Assembly: GCA_031254335.1 (NCBI GenBank)
Contig: JAIRUP010000003.1
Location: 5,257-69,256, forward strand
Origin: Rickettsiales bacterium
Lineage (GTDB): Bacteria > Pseudomonadota > Alphaproteobacteria > Rs-D84
Length of the DNA stretch: 64,000 nt
Reading direction: 5' to 3'
Shown: positions 9,772 through 63,078 of the stretch, in pieces
How positions within the stretch are numbered: the stretch's first letter is position 1
Layout: every line of letters starts with the position of its first letter
The notes under the pieces: model-generated
Database searches by the model: none
What the model was told of the DNA's origin: nothing
Seen by the model: only the letters and a program-made list of their open reading frames with translations
Made by a program: the position numbers and the translations under genes

Positions 9772-9871
9772 AATTTCCCCTTTCATTCCATGCGTATTTG
9801 CATTATATTTATTCAGAAATAATAATGCAAATAGTTATTACCTGGATTCCAGCTTTCGCTGGAATGACGGG

Positions 9872-12001
9872 GTGGAGCTGGCGGTGCAGGATTTATTGGA
9901 ATCTTTGAACGAGGGGCAGAGGCAGGCGGTTCTTACCACCGAGGGGCCTTTGCTTGTCCTAAGCGGCGCGGGGACAGGGAAGACCCGCGTGCTGACCACG
10001 CGCATAGCGCATATTTTGCAAAGCGGCTTGGCCGAGCCGTGGCAGATTCTCGCGCTTACCTTCACCAACAAGGCCGCCGGCGAAATGAAAACCCGGTTGC
10101 GCGGTTTGGTCGGAGATATGGTCGAGGGCGTTTGGATGGGGACTTTCCATTCCATAGGTTTGCGGATTCTGCGAGCGAACGCGCCGCTGGCGGGGCTTAA
10201 AAATCCCTTCGTCATCCTTAACGACGACGACCAGGAATCCGTCATAAAAAATATTCTGAAATCCATGAATCAGGACCCGAAGCAGGCGAGCGATATTGCC
10301 GGCAGGATTTCGCTTATGAAGGATACGGGACGAAACAGGCTGAACGAGTCCGAGCAGAAAGTTTTCGATGCATATCAGGCGGAATTGGAACGGATGAATG
10401 CCGTAGATTTTGGAGATTTGATTATAAAACCAATCAAGATGTTAATCGACAACCGCGATATTCTTAAAAAATATCAGCAACAATTCCTTTATGTGCTGGT
10501 GGACGAGTATCAGGACACCAACGCCTCGCAATATCAGCTTATGCGCCTGCTGGCAAGCGGGTCGGGAAATATTTGCTGCGTCGGCGACGACGACCAGTCA
10601 ATCTATTCCTGGCGCGGCTCGGAAGTCAAAAACATCCTGGGTTTTCAGAACGAATACAAGGGCGCGCAGGTCATTCGGCTTGAAAAAAACTATCGTTCGA
10701 CGCCCGAGATTCTCGGCGCGGCGAACAGCCTGATTAAAAACAACAAGGAACGCCTTGGGAAGAATTTGGAGGCGACCAAATCCGGCGGCGACAAGGTTCA
10801 AATAATCCGCGTTTGGAGCGACCTTGCGGAAGCGCAGGGGATTGCCGACGCCATTCAGGACATGGCGCGCGACGGCGAAAATTATTCCGATATGGCCGTA
10901 TTGATTAGAAGCGCGTCCTTGTCGCGACTTTTCGAAGAGGAATTTGTAAATCGCAAAATCCCATACAGACTTGTCGGCGGCACAAAGTTCTATGACCGCG
11001 CCGAAATCCGCGACGCAATCGCCTATGCGCGACTGCTGGCATATCCTTTCGACGATGTCGCCTTCGCGCGCATATTCAACACGCCGAAACGAAGCCTTGG
11101 CGACGCAGCTTTGGCCCAAGTCCGCGACTATGCCCGCGCGAACCATTTGTCTTTATTGGACGCGCTTCATTCCATGCCTTTGCCACCGCGCATGGCGAAA
11201 GGCGCGGCAGAATTCGCAAAGATTTTCTCCGAGGCGCGCGACATGGCGGACAGCGCGCCGCCCGCCGAAGTTTTCCAGGCTTTGCTGGACCGCGCGGGTT
11301 ATATCAAAATGTGGAACGAATCAAAAGAGCTTGACGCAAAGGAACGACTTGACCGAATCCGCGATTTAATCGGGACGCTTAAAGACGGGTATTCTTCATT
11401 GGAAGATTTCCTTGAACAGGTCGCGCTTTACACCAGCAACGACGAAGACGGCGTTTCCGGCGACGCCGTGTCCGTCATGACCATGCACGCCGCAAAGGGT
11501 TTGGAATTCAAGAATGTTTTTCTGCCGGCTTGGGAAGAGGGAATTTTTCCGAACGAGCGCGCTTTGGGCGAATTCGGAGCGGCGGCTTTGGAAGAAGAGC
11601 GGCGATTGGCTTATGTCGCCATCACGCGCGCGATTAGGCGCGCGGTCATTTCCCTGTCGGGTTCGCGCCTTTTGTTCGGGCAGCGGATTAATCCCAGGCC
11701 CAGCATGTTCATCGACGAGATAGAGGAAAGGTTTGCGGATAGGGTCGGGTTTAACAAAGGATATATACAATCTGAGATGCCGACCGACGCCCGCATGGCA
11801 CCCCCCACCGAAAAATCGCGCGGCGATTTTTCGACTTTCCCGCAAGGGGGGAGTTCCCCCTTTATCGGCCGGATGGTCGCGCACGAGGAATTGGGCAGGG
11901 GCGTCGTTATTCAATTAGACGGAGATATTGCGACCGTCGCCTTCCGGGACGCCGGGATGAAGAAGGTCAAGGTCGAGTTTTTGGAATTCGATAAAAAATA
12001 A
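9872..12001 (+). CDS. uvrD: UvrD/Rep-family ATP-dependent DNA helicase
   Basis: LLESLNEGQRQAV followed by the GAGTGKT Walker A; DEYQDTN; a helicase C-terminal region. The start is uncertain: the ORF track opens at 9761, but a B-family repeat lies in-frame at 9843..9870, so GTG 9872 is proposed. Confidence 0.85.
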   Translation: MELAVQDLLESLNEGQRQAVLTTEGPLLVLSGAGTGKTRVLTTRIAHILQSGLAEPWQILALTFTNKAAGEMKTRLRGLVGDMVEGVWMGTFHSIGLRILRANAPLAGLKNPFVILNDDDQESVIKNILKSMNQDPKQASDIAGRISLMKDTGRNRLNESEQKVFDAYQAELERMNAVDFGDLIIKPIKMLIDNRDILKKYQQQFLYVLVDEYQDTNASQYQLMRLLASGSGNICCVGDDDQSIYSWRGSEVKNILGFQNEYKGAQVIRLEKNYRSTPEILGAANSLIKNNKERLGKNLEATKSGGDKVQIIRVWSDLAEAQGIADAIQDMARDGENYSDMAVLIRSASLSRLFEEEFVNRKIPYRLVGGTKFYDRAEIRDAIAYARLLAYPFDDVAFARIFNTPKRSLGDAALAQVRDYARANHLSLLDALHSMPLPPRMAKGAAEFAKIFSEARDMADSAPPAEVFQALLDRAGYIKMWNESKELDAKERLDRIRDLIGTLKDGYSSLEDFLEQVALYTSNDEDGVSGDAVSVMTMHAAKGLEFKNVFLPAWEEGIFPNERALGEFGAAALEEERRLAYVAITRAIRRAVISLSGSRLLFGQRINPRPSMFIDEIEERFADRVGFNKGYIQSEMPTDARMAPPTEKSRGDFSTFPQGGSSPFIGRMVAHEELGRGVVIQLDGDIATVAFRDAGMKKVKVEFLEFDKK

Positions 12002-12012
12002 AAGTCCAAATA

Positions 12013-12990
12013 TTAGAGGCGGGGGGCGAGGGTCAGGACATCGTGCGTAATCGATACGCGGGTCGTATTCCCGTTCGGAGCCGTATAATCGTAATCCAAC
12101 GGCAACTGCCTGAGTTCGGGCGCGGTATTGAACAACTGCATGAACGGCGTCAGCATTTTCTTGAAATTAATTCCCGACGCTCCGCTGAAACAAGTCTGCT
12201 GCGCCGTCGTCATCGCCGCCGCCAGCTGGCCGCCGCCTGAAATCGTTTGTATCTCCTCGTCCGACATCACAAGGCATCTGTCCGTGAAGTGGAACACATT
12301 CTCGTCGTCGCTCATGACCGCGCGGACATCGAGCTGCGACGCGCCCATATCGCGCAACGCGTTCCCAAGCGAATTAGTGCAGCACTTCTTTCCCGCCGTC
12401 AAAAGGTTCCTATGCGCGCCTATCAGCACCCGGCCCGATTCGCTGCCGACGGGAAGGCTTCGGCGGTTCTTCAATTCCGTTATTATTATGCACATCTGCC
12501 GCTGGTCCACGCCATGCCCGCGGATTTGCGTCGTCGCGCGCACCGGCGGCTTTTTGTTCCATACCGCGCATTCCTTTTGCGTCCCATGCGGGCAACGGCC
12601 CCGTCCGACCGGCCCGCCGCAATGCAGTTTCCCATAGGATTCCAAGTCGCCGATTACGACGACCTTGTTCTCGAACAGATAATTGTTCTGGACATGGGTG
12701 AAAGGATTCGGAAATGTCGGCGCGGGATGGCCCGCCATCATTTCGGCCAGCGCGTCGTCGAACGCGCCGAGTCGCCCGGCGCGGAGCGGACCGGCCGCAA
12801 CGGGCTCCCATTCGCCGTCCTCGTCGTCTTCGATTTCTATATCAAGATTGATTACCAAGTCGCGCGGGACAGCCGGGCATTCCGCGGCTTCCTCTTCCGC
12901 CGGCTGCTCGGCGACGGGCTTTTCGGACGACGAGCAGCCCATGCCGAGGACGGCAATAATTCCTAGGAAAGAGACAAGTTTAAGGTTCAA
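12013..12990 (-). CDS. Hypothetical lipoprotein
   Basis: Signal peptide with a lipobox (LGMGCSS); an acidic stretch; Cys-rich; apparent TTG start; no confident family assignment. Confidence 0.5.
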   Translation of the reverse strand: MNLKLVSFLGIIAVLGMGCSSSEKPVAEQPAEEEAAECPAVPRDLVINLDIEIEDDEDGEWEPVAAGPLRAGRLGAFDDALAEMMAGHPAPTFPNPFTHVQNNYLFENKVVVIGDLESYGKLHCGGPVGRGRCPHGTQKECAVWNKKPPVRATTQIRGHGVDQRQMCIIITELKNRRSLPVGSESGRVLIGAHRNLLTAGKKCCTNSLGNALRDMGASQLDVRAVMSDDENVFHFTDRCLVMSDEEIQTISGGGQLAAAMTTAQQTCFSGASGINFKKMLTPFMQLFNTAPELRQLPLDYDYTAPNGNTTRVSITHDVLTLAPRL

Positions 12991-12996
12991 GTTTCT

Positions 12997-13050
12997 GACC
13001 CCCCACCAAAACCGCTTTGCGGTTTTGGCTCCCCCGCAAGGGGGGAGCTG
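12997..13050. repeat. C-family palindromic repeat (gaccccccacc...hairpin...cccccgcaaggggggag)
   Basis: Identical termini recur at 21988, 30011, 32374, 39928, 41368, 47712, 56285 and 62989, and in the composite copies at 46805, 53330 and 59902. Confidence 0.85.
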
Positions 13051-21586: not shown

Positions 21587-21663
21587 TGGCGCACCCGGAA
21601 GGATTCGAACCCTCAGTCTTCTGATCCGTAGTCAGACGCTTTATCCAGTTGAGCTACGGGTGC
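21587..21663 (-). tRNA. tRNA-Arg (anticodon ACG), CCA encoded
   Basis: Minus-strand cloverleaf GCACCCGTAGCTCAACTGGATA...CTACGGA...GGTTCGAATCC...CGGGTGCGCCA. Confidence 0.85.
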
Positions 21664-21987: not shown

Positions 21988-22042
21988 GACCCCCCCCCAC
22001 CTGCGGCTTTGCCGCAGACTCCCCCGCAAGGGGGGAGTTGGG
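21988..22042. repeat. C-family palindromic repeat between rpmA and rplU
   Basis: tgacccccccccacctgcggctttgccgcagactcccccgcaaggggggagttgg. Confidence 0.8.
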
Positions 22043-29837: not shown

Positions 29838-30074
29838 AAGTCGCCCCGAGGGGGGCGGTTTTTTTATTCCCACCCCGGCCCGCCTTCGTCTACGACTACG
29901 GCGCGGCGACTCCTCCCAAGAGGGGAATTTAATAAGGATTTATACAATGGACCCCGGCCTTCGCCGGGGTGACTGGTTGGGAAAGGCTCTGCGTAGGGGC
30001 GATGGGTTTTCGACCCCCCACCAAAAACGGCGAAGCCGTTTTTGGCTCCCCCGCATGGGGGGGAGCTAACCTTA

Positions 30075-30797
30075 TTATGAATTGAATTTGGATAAAAGGT
30101 CGGAGGGGACCGAGATTTGACGGATTTCGCCAGGCTTCAAATTCCCGAGCTTTATGCCCGCGTAGGATATGCGGATAAGCCGGCTCACTTCCATTCCCAG
30201 GCTGTTCAGAGTTTTTCTTATTTCGCGGTTCTTGCCTTCATGCAATATTACCGTCGACCACGCGTTGCCCGCCGTCTTGTCATCCACGCGCAGCGTTATC
30301 GGCGCGTATTTAATCCCGTCCACCGTTATGCCTTTGCGCAATTTTTCCATGTCGCCCTTGTTCGGAACGCCATGCGTTCTGACCGAATATATTCTTTCCA
30401 ATTCATTGCTTGGGCTTTCCATAAATCTTTGGAACTCCCCCGAGTTCGTAAGCAACAGCAAGCCTTCCGAATTCAAATCCAATCTGCCGATTGACACAAG
30501 CCGTCCGTATTCTTTCGGCAATGCGTCGAACACCGTTTTGCGGCCTTCGGGGTCGCTATGCGACACGACTTGGCCCGTGGGCTTGTGGTATATGAACAGC
30601 GACAGCTCCGTCGCAGGTTCCACCCGCCGTCCATTCACTGTTATCAGGTCGCGCGGCGACACATTCAGCGCGGGGCTGGTTATCACGATTCCATTCACGC
30701 GCACTTGGCCCGCTTCTATCATGCGTTCGGCCTCGCGCCGGCTGGCGATGCCGCTTGCGGCGATGGTTTTGGCTATGCGGTTAAGTTCGGTTTTCAT
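30075..30797 (-). CDS. RsuA/RluB-family rRNA pseudouridine synthase
   Basis: N-terminal S4 domain (IAASGIASRREAERMIEAGQVRVNG); catalytic GRLD motif (VSIGRLDLNSEGLLLLTN). Confidence 0.85.
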   Translation of the reverse strand: MKTELNRIAKTIAASGIASRREAERMIEAGQVRVNGIVITSPALNVSPRDLITVNGRRVEPATELSLFIYHKPTGQVVSHSDPEGRKTVFDALPKEYGRLVSIGRLDLNSEGLLLLTNSGEFQRFMESPSNELERIYSVRTHGVPNKGDMEKLRKGITVDGIKYAPITLRVDDKTAGNAWSTVILHEGKNREIRKTLNSLGMEVSRLIRISYAGIKLGNLKPGEIRQISVPSDLLSKFNS

Positions 30798-30805: not shown

Positions 30806-30881
30806 TGGTGCCGCCTATAAGATTCGAACTTACGACCCCCTCATTACGAATGAGGTGCTCTACCAGCTGAGCTAAGGCGGC
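30806..30881 (-). tRNA. tRNA-Thr (anticodon CGT)
   Basis: Minus-strand GCCGCCTTAGCTCAGCTGGTAGAGC...TTCGTAA...GGTTCGAATC...GGCGGCACCA. Confidence 0.85.
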
Positions 30882-30927: not shown

Positions 30928-32415
30928 TTAGCGCAGGGATTTTTTGATGTAATACTGCTGCGCTATGCCGAAGATGTTCGACACCGTCCAATACAACACA
31001 AGGCCAGCCGGCAGGCCCGCGAACAGGACCACAAACACCACCGGCATCCACTTCATGAAGCCCATGCCCGGCGTCGCCGCATTTGCGTTCGACGACATTT
31101 TCATTTGAAGCCACATTGTCGCGCCCATCAGAATCGGCAGAATTCCGATTGCGGGCAAGAACGAGGGCGGCGCGAAAGGCAACAGGCCGAACAGGTTCAA
31201 TATGTTCGTCGGGTCCGCCGCCGCCAAATCCCTTATCCACAGGAAACTTGAATCCCGCATTTCGACCGCGATAATCAGCGCGCGGTATAGCGCGAAGAAT
31301 ATCGGGATTTGCAGCAACATCGGCAGGCACCCCGACATCGGGCTGACCTTCGTCGTCTGATACAACCTCATCATTTCCTGTTGAAGGCGCGCGCGGTCGT
31401 CCTTATACAGCTTTTGGATTCTTTGCATTTCCGGCTGCATTTTCTGCATCGCCGCCATCGACTTATACGATTTCTTCGTAAGCGGTATCATCAGAATACG
31501 GATGATTAGGGTAAGGATAATGATTGCGAGGCCATAGTTCCCGACCAAATCGTGCAACGCCGTAAGCGACCAAAGGAAAGGCCGCGACAGGAACGAAAAC
31601 CATCCGTAGTCGATTGTTTGCGCGACGCCCGGCATCGCCGGATTCGCCGCGTTCAGGATTTTCTGCGATTTCGGCCCGGCATATATATTAAATGTAAAGT
31701 CGCTTGCCGCGTCCGCCGATATATCCGCCTGGAACCGGTCGCCGCCGATGTTCTTCATGCGGAGCGTGCGCGGACCCGGGACGCCCGAATCAATTTGCAC
31801 AAGCGTTTGCCAATACTGGTCCTCGAACCCGACGAACGAATTCGCGCCGCCGCCCCACACCGCGCTTTTATCCGATATATTTCCCCAGCTTTCGCGCTTC
31901 GTGTTTCCATCGATATTGGCGAGGCCGCCCGCGGATGTCATCAGCATCATGCTCGATTTTTTTCCGCCGTCCCTTGCGATTCTCGCGTAGGGCGCGGCGT
32001 TCCCTTTCGACTTAATCCGCACGCTTATCACATAGTCTTCCGATATTGAAATCGTCTTCGTGAATTCGCCGCCGCCGACCAGTCCGAACTCTATGAATTC
32101 GCCCGGGTTCGCCAGAAGCTCCACCGGCTTCGCGCCGTCATGATATTTCAGCAATCGGACATTCGATATGCGGTCGCCCGTTTGCGTGAGTTCGATGTTT
32201 TCGGATTTTATTTCGATTGGAGCGGACGAGGTCCCGCGGTCAAGCCGCGGGATGACATCATTATTTATTTGCGCGGGCTGCGGTTTGCTTGACGGCATGA
32301 AGAACGATATGATTAGCCAATTCAGGCCAAGGAATATTCCAAGCAGCAGCGCCAGTTCCAAGAATTTGGGTTTTGACCCCCCCGCAAGGGGGGAGTTATT
32401 TAATATTTTTACCAT
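30928..32415 (-). CDS. yidC: Membrane protein insertase YidC
   Basis: 495 aa; an N-terminal TM, a large periplasmic domain, and the conserved C-terminal 5-TM core (...LPMLLQIPIFFALY...). A truncated C-family repeat is encoded in-frame at residues about 6-14 (NSPLAGGSK). Confidence 0.9.
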   Translation of the reverse strand: MVKILNNSPLAGGSKPKFLELALLLGIFLGLNWLIISFFMPSSKPQPAQINNDVIPRLDRGTSSAPIEIKSENIELTQTGDRISNVRLLKYHDGAKPVELLANPGEFIEFGLVGGGEFTKTISISEDYVISVRIKSKGNAAPYARIARDGGKKSSMMLMTSAGGLANIDGNTKRESWGNISDKSAVWGGGANSFVGFEDQYWQTLVQIDSGVPGPRTLRMKNIGGDRFQADISADAASDFTFNIYAGPKSQKILNAANPAMPGVAQTIDYGWFSFLSRPFLWSLTALHDLVGNYGLAIIILTLIIRILMIPLTKKSYKSMAAMQKMQPEMQRIQKLYKDDRARLQQEMMRLYQTTKVSPMSGCLPMLLQIPIFFALYRALIIAVEMRDSSFLWIRDLAAADPTNILNLFGLLPFAPPSFLPAIGILPILMGATMWLQMKMSSNANAATPGMGFMKWMPVVFVVLFAGLPAGLVLYWTVSNIFGIAQQYYIKKSLR

Positions 32416-36375: not shown

Positions 36376-36452
36376 CGGGGCGTAGCTCAGCCTGGTAGAG
36401 TGCTTGCATGGGGTGCAAGAGGTCGCATGTTCGAACCATGTCGCCCCGACCA
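36376..36452 (+). tRNA. tRNA-Pro (anticodon GGG)
   Basis: CGGGGCGTAGCTCAGCCTGGTAGAGT...ATGGGGT...GGTTCGAACC...CGCCCCGACCA. Confidence 0.8.
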
Positions 36453-38966: not shown

Positions 38967-40025
38967 CTATTTGTTGTTCATTTCCCTACGAATCTCTCTC
39001 CAATTCGCGTGGTTAACCTGGTGCTCCTCGTATGTTTCGGCGAATATATGCCCCCCGCTTCCATCCGCCACGAAGTAAAAATAATCATGCTGTTCCGGGT
39101 TCAGAGCAGCCATTATAGCATGGATTCCGGGATTCGCAATCGGCGTCGGCGGAAGCCCTTTGTATTTATAAGTATTATACAGGCTGTCGGTTTCAAGGTG
39201 CTTCCTTGTAATCCCGCGGCCCTGCATGTGGCCCCAGCCGCCCGTTATCGCATAGACGACAGTCGGGTCCGCCTGCAACTTCATGCCTTTTTTCAGGCGG
39301 TTCACATACACCCCCGCCACGCGCGGCATTTCCGACAAGACCCTTGTTTCTTTTTGTATTATGGCCGCCAAGGATAGCAATTCCGTCCAGTTTTGTATCG
39401 GTTCCGGCAGGCTGTTCTCATATTTCGCGCGCGTCGCCGACATTTTATCCGCCATTGCGTTAAGGACAAGATTCCTATCCGCGCCCTTGGCGAATCCATA
39501 GGTTTCCGGGAACAATTCCCCGTCATTATAAAGCGTTCTTATTTGGCCGGTCAGCTCCGGGTGGTTGCCGACGATTTCATAGATTTGCTTCACCGTCAGC
39601 CCTTCGGGAATCGTAATCATCGTGAGGGCTATGCGGCCCTTGGCGAAATTACGCGCGGTCGTCCAGACGCTTTGGCCCGGCTTCAAGTCGTAAAGGCCCG
39701 ACTGTATGCGGCCGCCCCAAAGCTGGACCGATACCTTGAACAATATCCCGCTATTGATTAGATTTTGTTCGCGCAATTCCGCGGCCACTTTCGATATTGA
39801 CGCGCCCGCCGGGACATTGAACGGCGTTTTTTCCGCAATCGGCGAGCTGAAAAATGTCCAGCGCGCGAGGGTAAAGCCGGTTGCGAGGATGATAACGATT
39901 AGGAATTGGGCGAGGATGTTGCGTTTCGACCCCCCACCGAAACGCCAAAGGCGTTTCGACTCCCCCGCAATGGGGGAGTTGATTTTTTTTATTATTTTTT
40001 TCTTAATTTTCTTTTTCTTAGGCAT
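38967..40025 (-). CDS. mltG: Endolytic murein transglycosylase MltG (YceG family)
   Basis: YceG-like domain (...LPPTPIANPG...); the N-terminus carries an in-frame C-family repeat (KKINSPIAGESKRLWRFGGGSKR) encoded by 39928..39980. Confidence 0.85.
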   Translation of the reverse strand: MPKKKKIKKKIIKKINSPIAGESKRLWRFGGGSKRNILAQFLIVIILATGFTLARWTFFSSPIAEKTPFNVPAGASISKVAAELREQNLINSGILFKVSVQLWGGRIQSGLYDLKPGQSVWTTARNFAKGRIALTMITIPEGLTVKQIYEIVGNHPELTGQIRTLYNDGELFPETYGFAKGADRNLVLNAMADKMSATRAKYENSLPEPIQNWTELLSLAAIIQKETRVLSEMPRVAGVYVNRLKKGMKLQADPTVVYAITGGWGHMQGRGITRKHLETDSLYNTYKYKGLPPTPIANPGIHAIMAALNPEQHDYFYFVADGSGGHIFAETYEEHQVNHANWREIRREMNNK

Positions 40026-41367: not shown

Positions 41368-41423
41368 AACCCCCCACCGAAATTTTCATTGAAAATTTCG
41401 ACTCCCCCGCAAGGGGGGAGTTA
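41368..41423. repeat. C-family palindromic repeat between acpP and fabF
   Basis: aaccccccaccgaaattttcattgaaaatttcgactcccccgcaaggggggagtt. Confidence 0.8.
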
Positions 41424-45855: not shown

Positions 45856-47019
45856 TTAGAGGATGGCGCGGAGGATGTTTTCCGTCGCGTGATTCGGGGT
45901 TTGCGCAGACGCCGCCATTTTTTCTAGGCGAGCGGGATTCGAGAAAAGGTCGGATAAAATCGAAGAGAGATATTTCGGCGTGAAGTTTTTCTGTTCGATT
46001 GTGATTCCGCCGCCAAGTTTTTCGAACGCCCTTGCATTGGCCAACTGGTCCGGGTTTATGTTCAACGGCACCAATATCGCCGGTCTTCCCACCGTCATCA
46101 ATTCCGCCACCGTGCCGGCTCCGCTTCGCCCTATCACAAGGGACGCTTCCGAAATTTCCGTCGCCATATCCTTGAAGAACGGCGCGAGGCGGTGCTTTAT
46201 ATTAAGGTTGGTATAGAACTTACTCAATGATTGGATACTATTATTATCGACTTGTTGGACTATGGACAGGTTGTTGCGGATGGATGGCGGAAGCATTTCG
46301 ATTGCCGCCGGCACCACTTCGCGCAAAATGTTCGCGCCCAAGGAACCGCCGGTTATAAATATTGCGTGTCCGGCGTTGTAGGGAGCAGGGCGGAAGTCGC
46401 TTCGCACCGGCAATCCCGTCAATTCTATGCGCGCGTTTTTCGGAAGGCCCGTCGTCCCCGGAAACGAAATCAAAATCTTATCCGCGAATTTCGCAGAAAG
46501 CGCGTTCGCCCTTCCTGCCGCCGCGTTTTGCTCGTGCAGAAAAACAGGTATGCGCAGCAATTTCCCCGCAAGCACCGCGGGCACCGACGAATAGCCGCCG
46601 AACGCGACTATGCGCGACGGACGCGACACCAAAAAGCGCGCGCTCAACGCCGCCGCGCTTAACGCGATTTTCGATAGAGCGACGATTTTTCCGATTGGGC
46701 TGCGGTTGCCGACCCCGCTTGCCCAGACGCGCGCCACCTTTGCGTTCGCGGGTTTGTTCCGCGCGACCATATCATAGCCGCGGGCGTCGGTGGAGATTGT
46801 GATTTTGTTTTGACCCCCCACCGGCGGCTGCGCCGCCGCCGACAACGAATCCACCGAATTGAAAATTCGGGGATTCTGCTCGGACGGGAAATCATGCCGC
46901 CCGGCATGATTTCTTTGTCCGTCCTCACCCGCAAGGGGGGAGTTAACTATAGATTGGGCGACGGCGAGGGCCGGAAATATATGCCCGCCGGTGCCGCCGG
47001 TCGCTATCCATATTTTCAT
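45856..47019 (-). CDS. murG: UDP-N-acetylglucosamine--N-acetylmuramyl-(pentapeptide) pyrophosphoryl-undecaprenol N-acetylglucosamine transferase, carrying an in-frame repeat insertion
   Basis: MKIWIATGGTGGHIFPALAVAQ, then an insert of about 45 aa (NSPLAGEDGQRNHAGRHDFPSEQNPRIFNSVDSLSAAAQPPVGGQ) encoded by the composite repeat 46805..46948, then canonical MurG. Confidence 0.88.
   Translation of the reverse strand: MKIWIATGGTGGHIFPALAVAQSIVNSPLAGEDGQRNHAGRHDFPSEQNPRIFNSVDSLSAAAQPPVGGQNKITISTDARGYDMVARNKPANAKVARVWASGVGNRSPIGKIVALSKIALSAAALSARFLVSRPSRIVAFGGYSSVPAVLAGKLLRIPVFLHEQNAAAGRANALSAKFADKILISFPGTTGLPKNARIELTGLPVRSDFRPAPYNAGHAIFITGGSLGANILREVVPAAIEMLPPSIRNNLSIVQQVDNNSIQSLSKFYTNLNIKHRLAPFFKDMATEISEASLVIGRSGAGTVAELMTVGRPAILVPLNINPDQLANARAFEKLGGGITIEQKNFTPKYLSSILSDLFSNPARLEKMAASAQTPNHATENILRAIL
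46805..46948. repeat. Composite repeat of about 140 bp (C-family termini enclosing nested hairpins)
   Basis: gaccccccaccg...gaatccaccgaattgaaaattcggggattc...ggacgggaaatcatgccgcccggcatgatttctttgtccgtcc...cccgcaaggggggagtt; near-identical copies at 53330..53510 (intergenic) and 59902..60045 (inside proS). Confidence 0.9.
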
Positions 47020-48188
47020 GAGAACTCCTTACGGGTTGTGTCGGCTTTGCCGACGGATTTATTAAATGACGGCGGGGAAGGGAACTTATAGCTTCTTAAC
47101 AGGCCGAGCAGGATTCCGAACACCGCGCACATCGATATAAACGCGCTGCCTCCGTAAGATATAAACGGCAGTATCGTTCCCTTGGCCGGCGTTATATTCA
47201 ATGTCGTTCCTATATTCAATATCAAGTGCATCGTCATCAGCGCGACCGTGCCGCCGCACACCAGCTTCGTCGTCATGTCCGTCATATCCCGCATCAGCTT
47301 CAATATTCTCGCCAGCAGCCAAAGATACAGGCCAAGCAACGCCACGCCCGCCAGGATTCCCCGGTCTTCCACGAACGCCGCGAACACAAAGTCCGTATGG
47401 CTGTCCGGCAATGTAGATTTCACGAAGCTGCTATTGCTTTGGCCGATAAACCCGCCGTTCCTTATCGCGTCCAACGCCTGGTTCACCTGGTAGCCGTCGC
47501 CCTCGCCGAGCAATCTTTTCCGCACATGCGGCATAGTCGCAAACGCTATGCCCAGCAATCCAATCGCGCCGCTTGCCAATCCCGTCAGCGGCTTCCATCC
47601 GTATCCCGCGAAGAACAGCATCGCCCAGAATGTTCCGAAGTATATCAGCGTCATGCCGAAGTCCTTCCTGATAAATATCGTGGCCAGCAGGGGGAGGGTG
47701 ATGGCGAGGTAGACCCCCCACCGAAACCGCTTTGCGGTTTCGACTTCCCCGCATGGAGGGAGTTGGGACAAGAAGACGGCGGTTAATAATATGAAGAACG
47801 GCTTCAACAATTCCGACGGGTGGATTTGCTGGCCCAGAACCGTCAAGAATCGGCACGAGCCCTTGACGCATGTTGGGGAAATCAGCGTCGCCAGCACGAG
47901 CGCGGCGGTAATGGTTCCGAGGAGCGCAGACAGATATATGATTTGTTTCCTTGGCAGAAACGAAAAGAAAAACAGGGCGAAAAGACCGATTCCCATCGGG
48001 GCGAGGGCTTTTATAAAAAAGTATAGCGGCTGCTGGCCTATGCGGGCCGCGGACACTCCGCCCGCCGCAATCAGCATATAGACCCCGACCAGTATCAAGC
48101 CCAAGACCGAATACAATATCGCGCGGTCGGTTTGGAAGAACCATTTGGTCAAGAAGCTTGGGTCGCGGCGTTGGAAGCGCATTTGCAT
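47016..48188 (-). CDS. ftsW: Peptidoglycan glycosyltransferase FtsW (SEDS family)
   Basis: Ten-TM SEDS topology; conserved C-terminal region. An in-frame C-family insert (47712..47765) encodes LPPCGEVETAKRFRWGV. Confidence 0.88.
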   Translation of the reverse strand: MQMRFQRRDPSFLTKWFFQTDRAILYSVLGLILVGVYMLIAAGGVSAARIGQQPLYFFIKALAPMGIGLFALFFFSFLPRKQIIYLSALLGTITAALVLATLISPTCVKGSCRFLTVLGQQIHPSELLKPFFILLTAVFLSQLPPCGEVETAKRFRWGVYLAITLPLLATIFIRKDFGMTLIYFGTFWAMLFFAGYGWKPLTGLASGAIGLLGIAFATMPHVRKRLLGEGDGYQVNQALDAIRNGGFIGQSNSSFVKSTLPDSHTDFVFAAFVEDRGILAGVALLGLYLWLLARILKLMRDMTDMTTKLVCGGTVALMTMHLILNIGTTLNITPAKGTILPFISYGGSAFISMCAVFGILLGLLRSYKFPSPPSFNKSVGKADTTRKEFS

Positions 48189-50673: not shown

Positions 50674-50750
50674 GGGGCTGTAGCTCAGCTGGTTAGAGCG
50701 CCTGCCTGTCACGCAGGAGGCCGCGGGTTCAAGTCCCGTCAGTCCCGCCA
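50674..50750 (+). tRNA. tRNA-Asp (anticodon GTC)
   Basis: GGGGCTGTAGCTCAGCTGGTTAGAGC...CTGTCAC...GGTTCAAGTCC...CAGTCCCGCCA. Confidence 0.85.
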
Positions 50751-50761
50751 CTTTGCAAACT

Positions 50762-50837
50762 GGCCCCATCGTCTAGAGGCCTAGGACACCGCCCTTTCAA
50801 GGCGAGAACCCCGGTTCGAATCCGGGTGGGGTCACCA
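50762..50837 (+). tRNA. tRNA-Glu (anticodon TTC)
   Basis: GGCCCCATCGTCTAGAGGCCTAGGACACCGCCCTTTCAAGGCG...GGTTCGAATCC...TGGGGTCACCA. Confidence 0.8.
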
Positions 50838-50840
50838 GTT

Positions 50841-50916
50841 GGCTTGGTAGCTCAGTTGGTAGAGCAAATGACTGAAAATCATTGTGTCGGCGGTTCAATT
50901 CCGTCCCAAGCCACCA
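50841..50916 (+). tRNA. tRNA-Phe (anticodon GAA)
   Basis: GGCTTGGTAGCTCAGTTGGTAGAGC...CTGAAAA...GGTTCAATTCC...CCAAGCCACCA. Confidence 0.85.
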
Positions 50917-53242: not shown

Positions 53243-53329
53243 GTAAAATCAAGAGGTTATTTGGGAAGGTAAGAAGGAAGAAGTAGGAAGGAAGAAGGAT
53301 TGAATCGCCCGCAAAGCGGGCGATAGTTT

Positions 53330-53510
53330 CACACAATGGACCCCGAACAACGAATCCACCAAATCGAAGATTTGGGGATTCTGCTTGGCCGGGAAATCAT
53401 GACGCCAGTCATGATTTCTTTGTCCGTCCTCACCTTCGCTGGGGTGACGGGTGGGGTTATTCTCTGCCTGGGTGACGGCGGGGGGGGGAAGGCTTTGCAC
53501 AAAGAGGGGG
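53330..53510. repeat. Intergenic copy of the ~140-bp composite repeat, with an added B-like tail
   Basis: ccccgaacaacgaatccaccaaatcgaagatttggggattctgcttggccgggaaatcatgacgccagtcatgatttctttgtccgtcctcaccttcgctggggtgacgg. Confidence 0.8.
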
Positions 53511-56137: not shown

Positions 56138-56430
56138 TGTCAAAAAATCCAACCTCGCTTTTTCGTTTTCGGATTAAATCACCGAAAACGAAAAAGCGAG
56201 CTCGATAAGATTTTTTAAGTTTATAAAGTTTCCCGAAGGGGAAGGAAGGGAGAACGCCGCTGATTCAAAACAGCGGCGTTTTTTTGACCCCCCCCACCGT
56301 CCGCCTGCGCTTCGCGCTGGCGCGACGACTCCCCCGCAAGGGGGGAGTTAATTTATAGTGGGATTTTAGTTGACAAAAACAGAAGGGAAGGGTATAATCG
56401 GGGCATCCAATCCCAGCAAAAGGCCCAAAG

Positions 56431-58711: not shown

Positions 58712-58940
58712 ACGAAAAATCCTGAGCTGGAATTTTCGAATTCGGCTTAAAACCCCCACTACGCTTCGGGAAGCCGACACGCCGCGGACGCCTCAGTCCA
58801 GACGGCGGTCGGGTTTTCTTGGTATTGAACGATTTATCCTCGAAAACGCGAGTGGACTAATATTTTTTGAGTTATTGAGCGGCGGTTCCCGCACGCTTTG
58901 TTGCCGGGATTCCCCGGTCAAGCCGGGGAATGACAATTTA
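58712..58940. repeat. Composite intergenic repeat (D-family terminator element, a gagcggcgg...ccgcacgc linker, then an A-family element)
   Basis: The same module order as 8840..9075 and 20612..20980. Confidence 0.8.
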
Positions 58941-59219
58941 GCGGGAGGCGGGGGTGCGGCACTCGCGCAGCGCGAGGTGCCGGACATTATAATGCGGCTT
59001 GCCGTCCTTCATGAAAAACTGGCTGTCGCTGAAATACTTCTTATTCGCCATCGGGTCGCCCGTTTCAGAGCACGCTTTCCGCGCCGCAGCGGATTCTTCC
59101 GCAGGTTCCCGCGCGCTGTTCAACATGAAAACCGCCAGAGCGATTGTGCCGAATATGGCCACTATTATACGGTTCACGGATGAAACCATTTCTTTTTCTT
59201 GCTGGATTGTCATCGGCAT
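58938..59219 (-). CDS. Hypothetical small membrane protein (93 aa)
   Basis: One TM (IIVAIFGTIALAVFML); weak evidence. Confidence 0.3.
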   Translation of the reverse strand: MPMTIQQEKEMVSSVNRIIVAIFGTIALAVFMLNSAREPAEESAAARKACSETGDPMANKKYFSDSQFFMKDGKPHYNVRHLALRECRTPASR

Positions 59220-59316
59220 ATTCGCACCTCTTTTTTAATTAGGGTATAGCGCGGGGCGGGTTTTGTCAATGAGATAATGCGGCCGAGATTCCCCGGTCAA
59301 GCCGGGGAATGACAAT

Positions 59317-60720
59317 TTATTTTATGGTGCGGAGGATGGCGGGCAGGGTGTCCTTGACGGGAAGGGTTGCGGGCAGCAAGTCCGATTTGATTTCAAACTG
59401 TCCGTTCGCGATATTCTTATCCGAGGAAATTATTCTGACGGGCGCGCCAAGCAAATCCGCGTTCGCAAATTTGCTTCCCGCGCGGTCGTCCGTCGTATCG
59501 ATGATGGCGGGAATGTTGTTTTTAAGAAGTTCTTCGTAAAGTTTTTCCGCTTCCTTACGGGATGACTCGGCGGAGCCGAGGGTTATGATATGGACTTTAT
59601 AGGGGGCGACTTCCAAATTGAATTTTGCGAGAGAGTCGCTGCCGGACTGTTCCAACAACGCGCCCAAACATCTGCTGACGCCAATCCCATAACATCCCAT
59701 GACCGGGTTTTTCCGTTCGCCCTTTTCGTCCGTATATTCCAGCTTCATCGGTTTGGAATATTTGTCGCCCAGCCTGAAAATATTTCCGACTTCGACCGCG
59801 CGGTGCGCGCGGAGTTCGCCGCCGCATTTCGGGCAGACCAGAATATCGTCGGCTTCCTTGTCGCCGTTGGTCAGGATTTCCTTGTTGGAGCGGTAGCCGC
59901 ACGCGCCTTGACCCCCCACCGACGGCGAAGCCGTCGACGACAACGAATCCACCGAATTGAAAATTCGGGGATTCTGCTCGGACGGGAAATCATGCCGCCC
60001 GGCATGATTTCTATTTCCGTCCTCACCCGCATGGAGGGAGTTGTTATTTTGGCATACATATATAATGTCTTCGCCGGTGTCGTTCATCCATTGGAACTCG
60101 TGCGAGAACCGGCTGCTCATATCGCCGCCGGGAGCCAGAACATCAATCACATTTTCAAGGCCCAATCTTTTATATATGCGCTTGTAGGCTTCGAGGATTT
60201 TTTCGTAGGTCGCGTCAAGGTCCGCGTCCGTCGCATGGAACGAATACGCGTCCTTCATCAGGAATTCCCGGCCCCGCATGATTCCGGCGCGGGCGCGCGC
60301 TTCGTCCCTATATTTGTCTTGGATTTGGTAGAGCGTGAACGGAAGCTGCTTGTAGCTTTGCAGCGCGCCGCGAGCATAGTCCACCACGATTTCCTCGTGC
60401 GTGGGATTCAGGGCGAGCTCTTGGCCGCTTCGGTTCTTGAATTTCAGAAGCACATCCATATTCTCGCGCTTCGTTTCCCGCCAGAGCGCGACCGGCGACA
60501 GCACCGGCATGAAGATTTCCTGCGCGCCGGCTTTATTCATTTCGTCGCGGATTATGCTCGATATGTTTTGGATTGCGGCCCAGCCGATGGACGAATAGGT
60601 ATATATTCCCGCCGCCGTTTGATGGACGAAGCCGCCGCGCAGGCTTAACTTATGCCCGTTCGTCGTCGCTTCCGCCGGAAGTTCCTTTTCGCGTTTCAGG
60701 AATAGGTTTTCTATGCGCAT
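59317..60720 (-). CDS. proS: Prolyl-tRNA synthetase (short form without an editing domain) carrying an in-frame repeat insertion
   Basis: Class II aaRS motifs; a C-terminal anticodon-binding region. An insertion of about 45 aa (LHAGEDGNRNHAGRHDFPSEQNPRIFNSVDSLSSTASPSVGGQG) is encoded by the composite repeat 59902..60045. Confidence 0.9.
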   Translation of the reverse strand: MRIENLFLKREKELPAEATTNGHKLSLRGGFVHQTAAGIYTYSSIGWAAIQNISSIIRDEMNKAGAQEIFMPVLSPVALWRETKRENMDVLLKFKNRSGQELALNPTHEEIVVDYARGALQSYKQLPFTLYQIQDKYRDEARARAGIMRGREFLMKDAYSFHATDADLDATYEKILEAYKRIYKRLGLENVIDVLAPGGDMSSRFSHEFQWMNDTGEDIIYVCQNNNSLHAGEDGNRNHAGRHDFPSEQNPRIFNSVDSLSSTASPSVGGQGACGYRSNKEILTNGDKEADDILVCPKCGGELRAHRAVEVGNIFRLGDKYSKPMKLEYTDEKGERKNPVMGCYGIGVSRCLGALLEQSGSDSLAKFNLEVAPYKVHIITLGSAESSRKEAEKLYEELLKNNIPAIIDTTDDRAGSKFANADLLGAPVRIISSDKNIANGQFEIKSDLLPATLPVKDTLPAILRTIK

Positions 60721-60732: not shown

Positions 60733-63078
60733 TTAGAACTGGGTTTCGAACGACAGCAGGAACCGGCGCTCGCGGTCGTAGTCCTTGCGCAGGAACGGAT
60801 AGCCCCAGCTGAAATTCATCGGTCCCATCGGCGTGTTCCAATAGACTCCGAATCCATAGGACGCGCGCAAATCCTGGTCAATCATATTCGGCACGCCCAA
60901 TGTTTTCCAATCCTTTTCCGGCGGCTTGCCCAGCACGCCGTAATCCAGGAACACAAATCCCTTCACCTGGTATTCGTCCGGGATGAATATCGGGAAATTC
61001 ATTTGCGTCGTGCCGTTAACCTTCCACAGGCCTCCGAACGCATATCGGTTATTGAACCAAAGCCGCGAGCCGACGCCGGAATTGTCGAATCCGCGCAATG
61101 TTTCGCCGCCCAAGAAATACCTGTATGGGCGCAGAAGGTAGTCGTCTTGGAGCGGGTATATATATCCGCCGTCCAGGCTTGATTTAAGCTGCCATCTTTC
61201 GTCCAGGAAATTCACCAATCCCACAATCGACGAATCTCCGCGCAGGAATGTTTCCGTCCCCCCGAATCCCGTATAGGCCAGCGACAAGGAATACACGACC
61301 CCGGTATGGGTGTTTTGCTGGAAGTTCGTGTCCAAATTGGAATACCGAACCGATGTTCCCAAGGTATAAAGCGCCGTATCCGTCGCGCGCTGCATTTCAA
61401 CATCCGTTATATGGTCCCACATTCCCGACAAGCGGAGCTGCTGCGTCCAATTATCCGTAAGCAGCCAGCCCAGCCTTCCCGTGATTCCCGCCGTGTCCCT
61501 GTTATATCCGTAAGACCCAAGGTTCTTATAGTCGTATTTCACATAGTTCACATCGAAGCCGCCGCTTAACGCGCGCTTCCAAAGATACGGCTCTGTAAAA
61601 CTGAACGCGACCATGTCCTGATACTGCGCGACCTGGCCCTTGATGGACACGATTTGTCCGCGGCCCATGAAGTTCCGTTCGGTAATTCCCGCGTCCACCA
61701 TAAACCCGTTTATGTTCGACCAGCCAACGCCGCCCGACAATTCCCCCGTCGGCTGTTCCTGGACATTGACCGCAAGGTTCATAAGGTTCGTGTCCTCTAT
61801 CCGCGTTGGCGTCATTTCCACCGATTTAAAGAATCCCGTGCGCATGAGGCGTTGGCGCGACTGCTCTATCGTCTGCAACGAGAACGGGTCCTTGGGCTTC
61901 ATCATAAGGTGCCTGTTTATAACGAAATCGAATGTCCGGGAATTGCCCGCGACGATAATATCGTTCAGATACATTCTCGGGGCTTTCCGAATCCTGAATG
62001 TCAAATCGATTGTAAGGCTTTCGTCGTTTTTCTTCGGCTCTATATCGATATTGATAAACGCATAGCCTTTGTCCGCCACGATTTGGCGCAGCTTCGACAT
62101 CGTCATTTCGACTTTTTCCAGATTGTATATGTCGCCCGTCTCGAACTGGACGCCGCGCCGCAAGTCCCGCATTTCAACATCGGGGAACGGATTATCTATA
62201 TCAATCGCCCCGAATTTGAAGCGCGCCCCCTCGACTATCTTGAACTTCACCGAATAATCCCGCCTGTCGGCGGAAAGCCGCCCATACACGCGGCCGACGC
62301 TTACATCCGCGAAGCCGTTCTTCAAGTAAAACTGGCGGATAAGCTGCATGTCGTAATCGATTCTGTCCGCGTCATAGGAATCGAAGCTGGACATGAATTT
62401 CCACCAGGCGTATTCCTGCGACATGACCACGCCGCGGAGCGTTCTGTTCGAAAATTTCTCGTTCCCCTCGAAGTCGATATTGCGGATGCGCGTCCTGTGG
62501 CCCTCGGTTATCTTATACACCACATCCACGCGGTGGTCTTCCGTTATAATCTTCTGAGGCTCTACCTTTGTGTCGAAGAATCCATGCCTTTGATAGAGCG
62601 TGAGTATTCGCTGCGTGTCCGCGCCCACCGTCGCAATCGAAAACGGATTTCTTTCCGCGAGCCTTATTTCCTTTTTCAAATCCTCGGTCGAAATCTCGTC
62701 GTTTCCCTCTGTCGTGATTCGCCCGACAACCGGCGTTTCCGCCACGCGGATTTGGAGCGCGCCGCCCCGGATGTCCGCCGACACTTCCTCGAAGTATCCG
62801 CTTCGCTGCAAGGACTTGGTGATTTGGTTGAGCCGCGCTTTCGATATGTCCTCGCCCGGCTTCGCGCCGACCATCAGGATTACCGACTCGGAGTCTATGC
62901 GCTTGTTGCCGGCGACCGTGATTTTGGAGATTGTTTCGGCGAAGGAAGAAGTGGTTAAAAATAAGGATATGCCGAATAGTCCCCCCACCAAAAACCGCAA
63001 AGCGGTTTTTGACTCCCCCGCAAGGGGGGAGTTAATCTTATGAAATAATGCGAGAGAGAATTTCATTTTACAGACCAA
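60733..63078 (-). CDS. bamA: Outer membrane protein assembly factor BamA
   Basis: Five POTRA-like repeats plus a C-terminal Omp85 beta-barrel ending ...LSFETQF. An N-terminal in-frame C-family insert (62989..63033) encodes HKINSPLAGESKTALRFLVGG. Confidence 0.92.
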   Translation of the reverse strand: MVCKMKFSLALFHKINSPLAGESKTALRFLVGGLFGISLFLTTSSFAETISKITVAGNKRIDSESVILMVGAKPGEDISKARLNQITKSLQRSGYFEEVSADIRGGALQIRVAETPVVGRITTEGNDEISTEDLKKEIRLAERNPFSIATVGADTQRILTLYQRHGFFDTKVEPQKIITEDHRVDVVYKITEGHRTRIRNIDFEGNEKFSNRTLRGVVMSQEYAWWKFMSSFDSYDADRIDYDMQLIRQFYLKNGFADVSVGRVYGRLSADRRDYSVKFKIVEGARFKFGAIDIDNPFPDVEMRDLRRGVQFETGDIYNLEKVEMTMSKLRQIVADKGYAFINIDIEPKKNDESLTIDLTFRIRKAPRMYLNDIIVAGNSRTFDFVINRHLMMKPKDPFSLQTIEQSRQRLMRTGFFKSVEMTPTRIEDTNLMNLAVNVQEQPTGELSGGVGWSNINGFMVDAGITERNFMGRGQIVSIKGQVAQYQDMVAFSFTEPYLWKRALSGGFDVNYVKYDYKNLGSYGYNRDTAGITGRLGWLLTDNWTQQLRLSGMWDHITDVEMQRATDTALYTLGTSVRYSNLDTNFQQNTHTGVVYSLSLAYTGFGGTETFLRGDSSIVGLVNFLDERWQLKSSLDGGYIYPLQDDYLLRPYRYFLGGETLRGFDNSGVGSRLWFNNRYAFGGLWKVNGTTQMNFPIFIPDEYQVKGFVFLDYGVLGKPPEKDWKTLGVPNMIDQDLRASYGFGVYWNTPMGPMNFSWGYPFLRKDYDRERRFLLSFETQF

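Follow-up and report, generated by a model that had tools for sequence, protein, structure and literature searches.

Palindromic repeats read in frame within bamA and other genes of a Rickettsiales-like alphaproteobacterium are probably selfish elements surviving at tolerated sites

The bamA gene of an uncultured Rickettsiales-like alphaproteobacterium, represented by a metagenome genome of ~54% GC, encodes a signal peptide of 43 aa against 17-22 aa in orthologues, and the region concerned carries a short palindromic sequence that recurs in other genes and in the spacers between them. The locus raises the question of what this sequence is, whether it is translated where it falls within genes, and why it is found where it is. 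We consider these points for the whole stretch of DNA analysed, 64 kb of contig JAIRUP010000003.1 and hereafter the window, starting from a first-pass annotation that had described the repeats as in-frame insertions at the N-termini of envelope proteins. The features discussed are collected in Table 1.

Table 1. Genes and repeat copies in the window (positions are those of the window)
Feature	Position	Strand	Remarks
C element, antisense within uvrD-like helicase gene	11799..11855	-	58.6 bits
C element, intergenic	12997..13049	-	ends 7 nt upstream of TTG start of gene 12013-12990; 71.9 bits
C element, intergenic	21988..22039	-	between two - strand ORFs, 21 nt upstream of ATG 21967; 59.1 bits
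C element, intergenic	30012..30067	-	convergent genes 27396-29786 (+) and 30075-30797 (-); 65.3 bits
yidC (495 aa)	30928..32415	-	annotated YidC, MDR0319305.1
Truncated C element, yidC N-terminal tail	32371..32397	-	27 nt, hairpin 1 only, NSPLAGGSK; 25.4 bits
mltG (352 aa)	38967..40025	-	aligns with L122 gene carrying Pfam YceG; annotated MltG, MDR0319314.1
C element, mltG cytoplasmic N-terminal tail	39928..39981	-	codons 16-33, NSPIAGESKRLWRFGGGS; 70.2 bits
C element, acpP-fabF spacer	41368..41422	-	37 nt upstream of fabF start; 74.4 bits
murG (387 aa)	45856..47019	-	matches solved MurG structures; identical to P0001
135-nt long C variant in murG	46810..46944	-	45 codons after helix alpha1; family D5
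ftsW (390 aa)	47016..48188	-	matches solved FtsW and RodA structures, E = 2e-30
C element forming the entire inter-helix loop of ftsW	47712..47765	-	18 codons, QLPPCGEVETAKRFRWGV; 63.7 bits
Mosaic relative of long C variant	53315..53449	-	family D5, 67% identity
C element, intergenic, longer hairpin 2	56285..56349	-	50.7 bits
proS (467 aa)	59317..60720	-	matches solved ProRS, E = 1e-87
135-nt long C variant in proS	59908..60042	-	codons 227-271
bamA (777 aa)	60733..63066	-	83% identical to P0123, BamA [Rickettsiales bacterium]
C element, bamA signal-peptide region	62979..63036	-	codons 12-29, NSPLAGESKTALRFLVGG; 75.5 bits

The repeat, which we call the C element, is 53 nt long and consists of a conserved hairpin, a variable hairpin and a G-rich tail. 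It does recur at the places first proposed. Its core (CTCCCCCGCAAGGGGGGAG) is found 12 times in 64 kb with up to three mismatches, about one copy per 5 kb, against 0.02 expected from shuffled sequences; the left arm (CCCCCCACCRAAA) is found seven times against 0.30 expected. A covariance model built from the window copies recovers nine copies in full, with scores of 50.7-75.5 bits, and the truncated one in yidC with 25.4 bits; two long variants are matched in part. Read on the minus strand, hairpin 1 is a conserved stem of 8 bp (ACTCCCCC-CTTGC-GGGGGAGT), and adjoining it is hairpin 2, of 7-10 bp, in which the sequence varies by copy while pairing is almost always complete; the 3' tail (GGTGGGGGG) is unpaired. 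The two-hairpin fold is common to every copy (z from -2.9 to -5.8, with -5.7 for the bamA copy), and compensatory changes affect 7 of 15 pairs, with strong covariation in hairpin 2 and almost no pair broken. The long variant, of 135 nt, has the termini of the short form and additional inner hairpin modules, and its mosaic relative elsewhere in the window has only these inner modules in common with it, the first hairpin being different. All repeat families in the window are co-oriented (45 direct pairs and no inverted pair), and the C copies occur singly and in one orientation, with no inverted doublets.

Seven of the 12 copies lie inside genes whose frame is unbroken, and the five that had been considered intergenic are all indeed so. 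The position of the gene start is critical for those near N-termini. In bamA, the ATG lies 1 nt past the rseP stop codon, is placed identically in the public annotation (MDR0319333.1) and, together with the first residues MKF..LF, is common to the 83%-identical orthologue (MKKFLSIF), in both genes upstream of the element. The first-pass annotation located this copy correctly and drew it slightly too short, at 62989-63033; the covariance model extends it to 62981-63033, or ~62979-63036 with flanks. An in-frame TTG at 63000, within the copy, would yield a canonical signal peptide of 21 aa (MRFLVGGLFGISLFLTTSSFA), so that the upstream half of the element could be untranslated, and in the relative L132 comparable elements precede the start, in the spacer separating rseP from bamA. 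These observations, along with a TTG that follows the yidC copy and three intergenic copies situated 7-37 nt upstream of start codons, are what would recommend a view of the repeats as 5' UTR or intergenic sequence, with true starts downstream and nothing translated. We regard that view as very unlikely, because bamA has no start codon between the C element and the hydrophobic core, so that at least the 3' part of the copy should be coding, and because the bamA start is homologous to that of its orthologue. Similarly, the mltG start (MPKKKK) matches that of the L122 orthologue (MPAKKKKK) upstream of the element, and no in-frame ATG, GTG or TTG occurs from there to the membrane helix. The copies in ftsW, murG, proS and the uvrD-like gene are internal to their genes, and NCBI and JGI gene calls have the starts used here. 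The coding interpretation first put forward consequently stands, the ancestral starts of bamA and mltG being upstream of the element.

The case for a coding copy in yidC is similar and weaker. The truncated copy, placed by codon alignment with yidC of L121 and L122, follows an ATG preceded at 7 nt by AAGGA, and the window gene offers neither ATG nor GTG past the element; initiation at the TTG would cost the conserved KPKF, orthologues beginning M(EN)KKPKY or MKRKY directly before the first membrane helix. The ftsW copy (NCBI calls this gene at 388 aa) is different again. By codon alignment, the loop that it constitutes has 18 codons both here and in L122 and 12 in L121. The element adds no length when compared with L122 or Pseudomonas FtsW, which simple insertion fails to explain.

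While the copies in bamA, mltG, yidC and ftsW had been recognised at the outset, the copy in the uvrD-like gene and the 135-nt variant in murG and proS had been overlooked. The murG insert is missing from orthologues P0003 and P0004, and in an AlphaFold2 model of MurG residues 30-68 have pLDDT <50 while the others are mostly at 87-97, a pattern that predicts disorder in the insert. In proS, named as a prolyl-tRNA synthetase by JGI and as a hypothetical protein by NCBI, homology to solved ProRS ends at residue 224 and restarts at 297; past both the murG and the proS insert it restarts in frame. The relative L131, whose BamA is the one 83% identical, has a short C element at exactly the site of the long form in the window's proS. 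The uvrD-like helicase gene (9761-12001, + strand) is read through its copy on the opposite strand, giving PPTEKSRGDFSTFPQGG, at a point past the helicase core (Pfam UvrD_C ends at residue 633) and before the last ~45 residues. A secreted protein of 1759 aa is a further host, with one long and one short copy in the same frame. Comparison with orthologues, which the first-pass annotation had proposed, thus finds murG without its insert and the bamA and mltG starts conserved upstream of theirs.

The same gene copies bear on whether the encoded peptide is itself the reason for their presence. An NSP(L/I)AGESK-type reading had been claimed for bamA, mltG and yidC, and their translations (Table 1) agree with it; it had also been claimed for ftsW, which uses another frame. 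A common frame, found in 8 of 11 coding copies in the window and relatives, and the several envelope proteins among the hosts might suggest that NSPLAGESK...GG is a functional protein module, for instance an envelope sorting or interaction motif, acquired for its protein function. The frame is not constant, since the ftsW, L131 uppS and uvrD-like copies use two other frames or the opposite strand, and the supposed specificity for envelope proteins is contradicted by the cytoplasmic hosts MurG, ProRS and the UvrD-like helicase. Moreover, identical DNA is also intergenic, conservation tracks base pairing and not the amino acids of hairpin 2, disorder is predicted for the MurG insert, and the BamA peptide sits in a signal peptide that is cleaved off. 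We consider a protein module extremely unlikely. A search with a 64-aa concatenation of three peptide variants against 5.8 billion proteins returned seven word-sharing candidates and no matches. Two other ideas about coding copies were discarded: core lengths are 49-53 nt in both coding and intergenic classes, which, with the true boundaries undefined, offers no sign that only the former are multiples of three; and a filter on stop codons is not a full account of frame usage, the core being open in all six frames, some of which are closed by flank-derived TAA or TGA alone.

The strong covariation of hairpin 2 raises the prospect that the element acts as RNA, either a structured RNA or a cis-regulatory hairpin tuning translation initiation, mRNA stability or termination, and that the coding copies too would be selected for this role. 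The nearest analogue is whalefall-1 (Rfam RF01762), a 56-nt motif that likewise has a C/U-rich conserved hairpin, an adjacent covarying hairpin of 9 bp and a G-rich unpaired 3' tail, and whose model aligns end to end with two C copies. Membership was nevertheless rejected, because the best scores, 28.4 bits (the acpP-fabF copy) and 26.9 bits, fall short of the gathering score, 37 bits; no Rfam threshold is reached, and the whalefall-1 score also stays below threshold in 18 hairpin-bearing loci scanned, mostly from Mesorhizobium. Whalefall-1 is described as a stand-alone noncoding RNA from whale-fall metagenomes only, graded as certainly an RNA owing to covariation (Weinberg et al. 2010, PMC2864571), and not as a dispersed repeat or coding insert, unlike the C element. 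Location offers some encouragement, in that 7 of 12 copies fall from 37 nt upstream to 76 nt downstream of the start of a co-directional gene, and in that, 7-9 nt ahead of the TTG at 12990, the G-rich tail looks like a ribosome-binding site. Other copies are mid-gene or late in the gene (ftsW, proS, uvrD-like), between convergent genes, or antisense to the host gene, placements so varied that no one RNA role fits them all. On the plus strand, hairpin 1 with its T-rich flank scores as terminator-like; Rho-independent termination as a general role was rejected, given that many hairpin-2 variants have no T run and that copies occur inside genes. Nor do intact stems demand selection on RNA, for template-switch repair can keep perfect stems in DNA palindromes without it. 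Finally, a dozen copies in 64 kb, and the presence of the 19-nt hairpin in >120 stretches of genome, most of them alphaproteobacterial, where it frequently forms inverted pairs, are typical of dispersed DNA repeats. An RNA-level role is, in our judgement, distinctly unlikely.

As a dispersed repeat, the C element has several analogues. The closest parallel is with the Rickettsia palindromic elements (RPEs), which have been described from numerous genes of Rickettsia, where they are inserted in frame (Ogata et al. 2000 and 2002, via PMC10969869). Both are dispersed, hairpin-forming palindromic repeats of Rickettsiales-like alphaproteobacteria, and both have in-frame copies in unrelated housekeeping genes that are left intact, with a conserved peptide at fold-compatible positions; the C family is, as an RPE-type repeat should be, a dispersed repeat with stable hairpins and in-frame copies in seven intact genes. 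Compared by description, RPEs are ~100-150 bp long whereas the C element is 50-55 nt (135 nt in the mosaic form) and G+C-rich, and their host is Rickettsia while the present one is annotated as 'Rickettsiales bacterium', at ~54% GC. Signal-peptide insertion, strict co-orientation and module swapping are features of the C element that we cannot attribute to RPEs. The short imperfect palindromes, many copies, sub-families and mosaics of the REP, BIME and REPIN systems, associated with RAYT (TnpA-REP Y1) transposases, are also reminiscent of the C family. Inverted pairs of the 19-nt C hairpin, spaced by ~90 nt, are found in Rhizobiales genomes such as those of Mesorhizobium and Bradyrhizobium, among others, and a strand-specific, single-strand mechanism would account for uniform orientation. 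REPs are extragenic by definition, however, while 7 of 12 C copies are inside genes, and REPINs are inverted doublets while the window contains single, co-oriented copies. No RAYT gene was found in the window, where a Pfam scan of 40 ORFs gave no transposase and no Y1 match, and Y1 transposases of RAYT or IS200 type are reported to be rare or lacking in Alphaproteobacteria (PMC6006769). MITEs with intragenic copies (ERIC, Correia/NEMIS, Coxiella QMITE1 and those of Anabaena; PMC10969869) are similarly small and non-autonomous and can form in-frame host fusions, but the C element has no identified target-site duplication, parent insertion sequence, or terminal inverted repeat beyond its runs of C6 and G6, which are its sole complementary ends. 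The flanks of the C copies (AAATTA|AC... and ...GGGGGGTC(A/G)AAA) show no clear duplication, the empty sites being too diverged to fix boundaries. A metagenome scan for AACTCCCCCCTTGCGGGGGAGTC gave seven loci only, with one copy each, and nothing relevant was found in the literature on the 19-mer.

Our preferred explanation, which we think probable, is that the C family consists of small, selfish repeats of palindromic sequence, REP/RPE-like mosaics of hairpin modules that survive at tolerated sites. Mobility is suggested by copy number and by presence and absence between relatives, and the common orientation of the copies hints at a single-strand, strand-specific mode of insertion at the replication fork. 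A copy landing in a gene would persist if the frame were kept and the extra residues were harmless there, and genic copies can persist since the element is G+C-rich and almost without stop codons, and the peptide it would encode is rich in Pro, Gly and Ser. The occupied sites would then be tolerant ones: in BamA the signal peptide; in YidC and MltG the cytoplasmic tail that precedes the first membrane helix; in FtsW the loop joining membrane helices; in MurG the alpha1-beta2 surface loop; in ProRS the position where other bacterial ProRS bear a whole extra domain; and in the UvrD-like helicase the stretch from the helicase core to the short C-terminal tail.

An N-terminal bias, as first claimed, is present, 4 of 7 coding copies beginning within the initial 10% of their protein (P ~0.003 in a binomial test applied post hoc, with seven copies in one window), and the seeming preference for N-termini and envelope proteins would be mostly this tolerance filter, to which a true preference for gene 5' ends may add. 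Different elements are found in relatives at the murG alpha1-beta2 loop, the mltG tail, the ftsW loop and the uppS N-terminus, and also at the rseP-bamA junction, there upstream of the start; those elements have C-like architecture. Such recurrence is evidence for permissive or hot sites. On a more far-reaching view, the C element might belong to a large, unnamed alphaproteobacterial superfamily of modular hairpins, of which whalefall-1 would be one branch, spreading by a strand-specific mechanism coupled to replication or to an RNA intermediate and homing preferentially to gene 5' ends, such that bamA, mltG, murG, ftsW and uppS are re-hit by targeting and not by tolerance. We consider this unlikely; were it true, such elements could supply ribosome-binding sites, start codons and signal-peptide segments at gene 5' ends.

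As a probable selfish repeat filtered by tolerance, the C element indicates that protein-coding palindromes, hitherto seen as a peculiarity of Rickettsia, occur in another Rickettsiales-like lineage, in the form of a G+C-rich element that looks unrelated to those of Rickettsia, and that they can reside in essential genes for envelope biogenesis and the cell wall (bamA, yidC, ftsW and murG). In proS, a single insert has been kept across two species while its inner module was exchanged. There is also a caution for annotation, because C inserts extend signal peptides, lead a ProRS to be called 'hypothetical' and can pass for structured RNA genes. The strict co-orientation of all repeats is a testable lead on the mechanism of spread, and the copies themselves amount to a natural insertion map of permissive sites in the host proteins.

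The C element, a hairpin-forming repeat of 50-55 nt for which the bamA site contains AACTCCCCCCTTGCGGGGGAGTCAAAAACCGCTTTGCGGTTTTTGGTGGGGGGAC on the minus strand, is a genuine repeat family, as the first-pass annotation had proposed: its core, CTCCCCCGCAAGGGGGGAG, has 12 matches in the window against 0.02 expected (at most three mismatches; shuffles), every one on the plus strand as written, and its left arm, CCCCCCACCRAAA, has seven against 0.30 expected. A covariance-model census of the window recovered nine full copies at 50.7-75.5 bits, a truncated copy in yidC at 25.4 bits and only partial matches to two 135-nt variants, while the reverse orientation gave no convincing match. Because some of these same copies went into the model, this is a census of the element rather than an independent test.

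Folded as single strands, most copies form a pair of neighbouring hairpins and then an unpaired tail (folding z -2.9 to -5.8). Hairpin 1 is conserved, with 8 bp (ACTCCCCC / GGGGGAGT) and a 5-nt loop; hairpin 2 has 7-10 bp and a 3-nt loop; the tail, GGTGGGGGG, pairs instead with a C run in the minimum-energy fold of three copies. When 16 copies (window and other genomes) are compared, 7 of the 15 base pairs are changed on both sides with pairing kept, and almost none is broken. Hairpin 2 is flipped between copies, being CCGCTTTGCGG in bamA and CCGCAAAGCGG at 12999 and 47714, which suggests that this module undergoes inversion or exchange. The 135-nt repeat of murG and proS has the ends of the C element (AACTCC...GGGTGAG and GGTGGGGGGTCAA) with extra hairpin modules inside, while a third, related copy has only the inner modules in common and a different first hairpin. 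Given this sharing and swapping, C-type elements are mosaics of hairpin modules.

Coordinates of repeat copies and associated features (window positions unless a locus is named)
Feature	Position	Remark
Full C copies by covariance model	62981, 41370, 12999, 39930, 30014, 47714, 21993, 11801, 56290	
C copies aligning full-length with whalefall-1	41368-41423; 62979-63034	below threshold
Hairpin 2, flipped	62995-63013 vs 13011-13029 and 47726-47744	exact reverse complements, loop TTT vs AAA, same conserved flanks
Third 135-nt-related copy	53315-53449	
Sites re-used by other elements in relatives		murG loop; mltG tail; ftsW loop; uppS N-terminus; rseP-bamA spacer
GPGLRRGD-type element in L121 murG	L121 3512-3700	at site of window's murG insert
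ProRS gene	59317-60720	NCBI 'hypothetical protein LBH81_01175', JGI ProRS; E = 1e-87 to solved ProRS
Other repeat families inside ORFs	9842-9877, 11759-11814, 29947-29982	includes LDSSFRWNDG, in 5' extension of uvrD-like ORF
Intergenic C copy with TTG start beside it	12990-13049	G-rich tail ends 7 nt ahead of TTG start; product N-terminus signal-peptide-like
F420-ligase-like + IMPDH-like segment	56431-58711 vs L131 13722-16061	inverted relative to bamA and proS
Repeats bordering that segment	56285-56349; 58764-58945, 59281-59324	C copy; other families
Reverse-transcriptase gene (Pfam RVT_1, 333 aa) + adjoining 99-aa ORF	L121 7645-8945 / L131 21334-22256	in closest relative, near yidC; no counterpart among window ORFs scanned with Pfam
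tRNA genes	50674-50913; 21590-21663, 30809-30881, 36376-36449	cluster of three; singles

To judge from comparison with orthologues, the copies that lie in genes are coding. In L131, the locus of the closest relative, whose BamA is 83% identical to that of the window, bamA overlaps rseP at an ATGA and its product begins MKKFLSIFSLLFITASHA, then EV; the window gene has its ATG 1 nt past the rseP stop and encodes MKFSLALFHKI-(NSPLAGESKTALRFLVGG)-LFGISLFLTTSSFA, then ET, so that the ancestral start and first residues lie upstream of the element. The signal peptide is split and has 43 aa, whereas four orthologues have 17-22 aa; by hydropathy its hydrophobic core persists after the insert. No start codon is found in bamA downstream of the element; a TTG at 63000 is still inside it (a start there would give MRFLVGG...), so with either start the element is coding in its 3' part at least. 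The mltG start, MPKKKKIKKK, corresponds to MPAKKKKK in the orthologue, which has a different G+C-rich insert in the identical place, and from the element to the membrane helix no in-frame start occurs. The yidC product reads MVKILN-(NSPLAGGSK)-PKFLEL, with AAGGA 7 nt before the ATG, and its orthologues begin MENKKPKY or MKRKY. Public gene calls from NCBI and JGI agree with the starts used here; they belong to a metagenome genome labelled 'Rickettsiales bacterium' with locus tags LBH81_, and the contig measures 84,968 bp. With ancestral starts upstream, other copies internal to genes and public calls in agreement, the alternative that, in all four genes of the first-pass annotation, start codons lie downstream and the repeats are 5'-UTR fails.

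The internal copies occupy varied positions. In ftsW the element forms an entire loop, bounded by FL(S/A) on one side and Y(L/I)xI on the other, both conserved; it is read not as NSP(L/I)AGESK, as earlier proposed, but in a different frame, as QLPPCGEVETAKRFRWGV. This loop has 18 codons in the window and in L122 and 12 in L121 (loci of the next relatives), and the Trp present in both close orthologues is encoded by a TGG within the element's G tail; the copy looks like replacement more than pure insertion. The murG gene has 45 additional codons past helix alpha1, missing from the orthologues P0003 and P0004 (65% and 64% identical). AlphaFold2 models the protein with a mean pLDDT of 85; residues 30-68, flanked by a helix (11-26) and a strand (72-77), score below 50 there and are without secondary structure. 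The 45 additional codons of proS are residues 227-271; homology to solved ProRS ends at residue 224 and restarts at 297, and across the corresponding interval the longer solved enzymes have about 170 additional residues, which are the insertion (editing) domain. The 45-aa repeat insert may have influenced the NCBI naming of this protein. In the plus-strand uvrD-like helicase gene the element is read antisense, past the helicase core (residue 633 is the last in Pfam UvrD_C), and the frame runs on into a C-terminal tail of about 45 residues. Directly preceding this copy is GYIQSEMPTDARMA, of another repeat family, and the LDSSFRWNDG repeat is probably upstream of the gene's true GTG start; families other than C also occur inside ORFs.

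None of the six frames is closed within the core; some are shut only by flank-derived TAA or TGA. Coding copies in the window use the NSPLAGE frame five times, the +1 frame once (ftsW) and the antisense once (uvrD-like); relatives add three NSPLAGE copies (proS of L131 and two in the secreted 1759-aa protein P0250) and a third frame in uppS of L131. The start of four of the seven coding copies falls within the N-terminal 10% of the protein (post hoc P about 0.003), and three of five intergenic copies have a co-directional gene starting 7-37 nt downstream; the G-rich tail before one TTG start (12990-13049) could act as a ribosome-binding site. The inserts that the first-pass annotation placed in envelope proteins are real and coding, but restricting them to envelope proteins is too narrow.

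At the proS site, L131 carries a short C element, NSPLAGESQSAKRDAVGGQ, exactly where the window has the long variant, so the insertion is older than the split of the two genomes, with the inner module exchanged later. L121 and L122 contain no C copies; they and GCA_031283185.1 (L132, L133) have other hairpin-hairpin-tail elements at the same sites. This recurrent use fits permissive sites or hot spots alike, and the data do not separate these. In the Cys-rich P0250, a protein from a public set and not of the window, aa 117-161 form a long variant with 96% identity to the murG insert; downstream, sharing its frame, follows a short C element, both within an N-terminal low-complexity region. More widely, over 120 reference-genome stretches, overwhelmingly of Alphaproteobacteria (Mesorhizobium, Bradyrhizobium, Kaistia, Devosia and others), contain the 19-nt hairpin CTCCCCCCTTGCGGGGGAG, frequently as inverted pairs about 90 nt apart; many copies, notably of the Mesorhizobium type, continue into a variable hairpin and a G-rich run. 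The exact window type is found in two other Rickettsiales metagenome genomes (L109, L114).

The C copies are co-oriented, 12 of 12 (P = 0.0005 under random orientation), and every other repeat family in the window is likewise unidirectional: by self-BLAST, repeat pairs within it number 45 direct and 0 inverted, with a similar picture in the relatives L132 (66 and 0) and L133 (122 and 2). Window genes occupy both strands, and six of the seven coding copies are in minus-strand genes, though plus-strand genes make up 62% of coding DNA. Cumulative GC skew declines over most of the window with small reversals, a course compatible with a single replichore. Transposition of single strands into one template strand, which IS608 and ISDra2 are documented to perform (PMC6006769), would give this pattern and may be how the co-oriented repeats arose. 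Few Y1 transposases are reported from alphaproteobacteria (PMC6006769), and a Pfam scan of 40 window ORFs found no transposase.

Among known systems, Rfam assigns the window copies to no family at threshold. Under relaxed thresholds two copies match whalefall-1 (RF01762), a noncoding RNA motif described from whale-fall metagenomes (PMC2864571), over the full length, scoring 28.4 and 26.9 bits where the gathering score is 37. This 56-nt motif has the same layout as the C element. The C element falls below the threshold, as do all 18 hairpin-bearing loci scanned (mostly Mesorhizobium; also Jiella, Roseibium, Devosia, Hoeflea and others). Whalefall-1, an 'orphan sRNA' motif, may in turn be one of the dispersed repeats of this superfamily. 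REP/REPIN elements are defined by extragenic location and inverted doublets, neither of which applies to the C element, and by a cognate RAYT (Y1 transposase) gene, none of which was found in the window. Of the hallmarks of MITEs, terminal complementarity is limited to the C6 and G6 runs, and the flanks give no clear sign of a target-site duplication. In behaviour, compared by description rather than sequence, the closest match is the Rickettsia palindromic elements, which lie in frame in many unrelated genes at fold-compatible positions (PMC10969869); they differ from the C element in size and composition.

We consider it probable that the C element is a selfish palindromic repeat kept only at permissive, frame-preserving sites, which would make it a new addition to the already known 'protein-coding palindrome' kind. 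Four points deserve to be pursued: that all copies are co-oriented, that a module was exchanged at an orthologous site, that sites are used repeatedly and that there is a link to whalefall-1.
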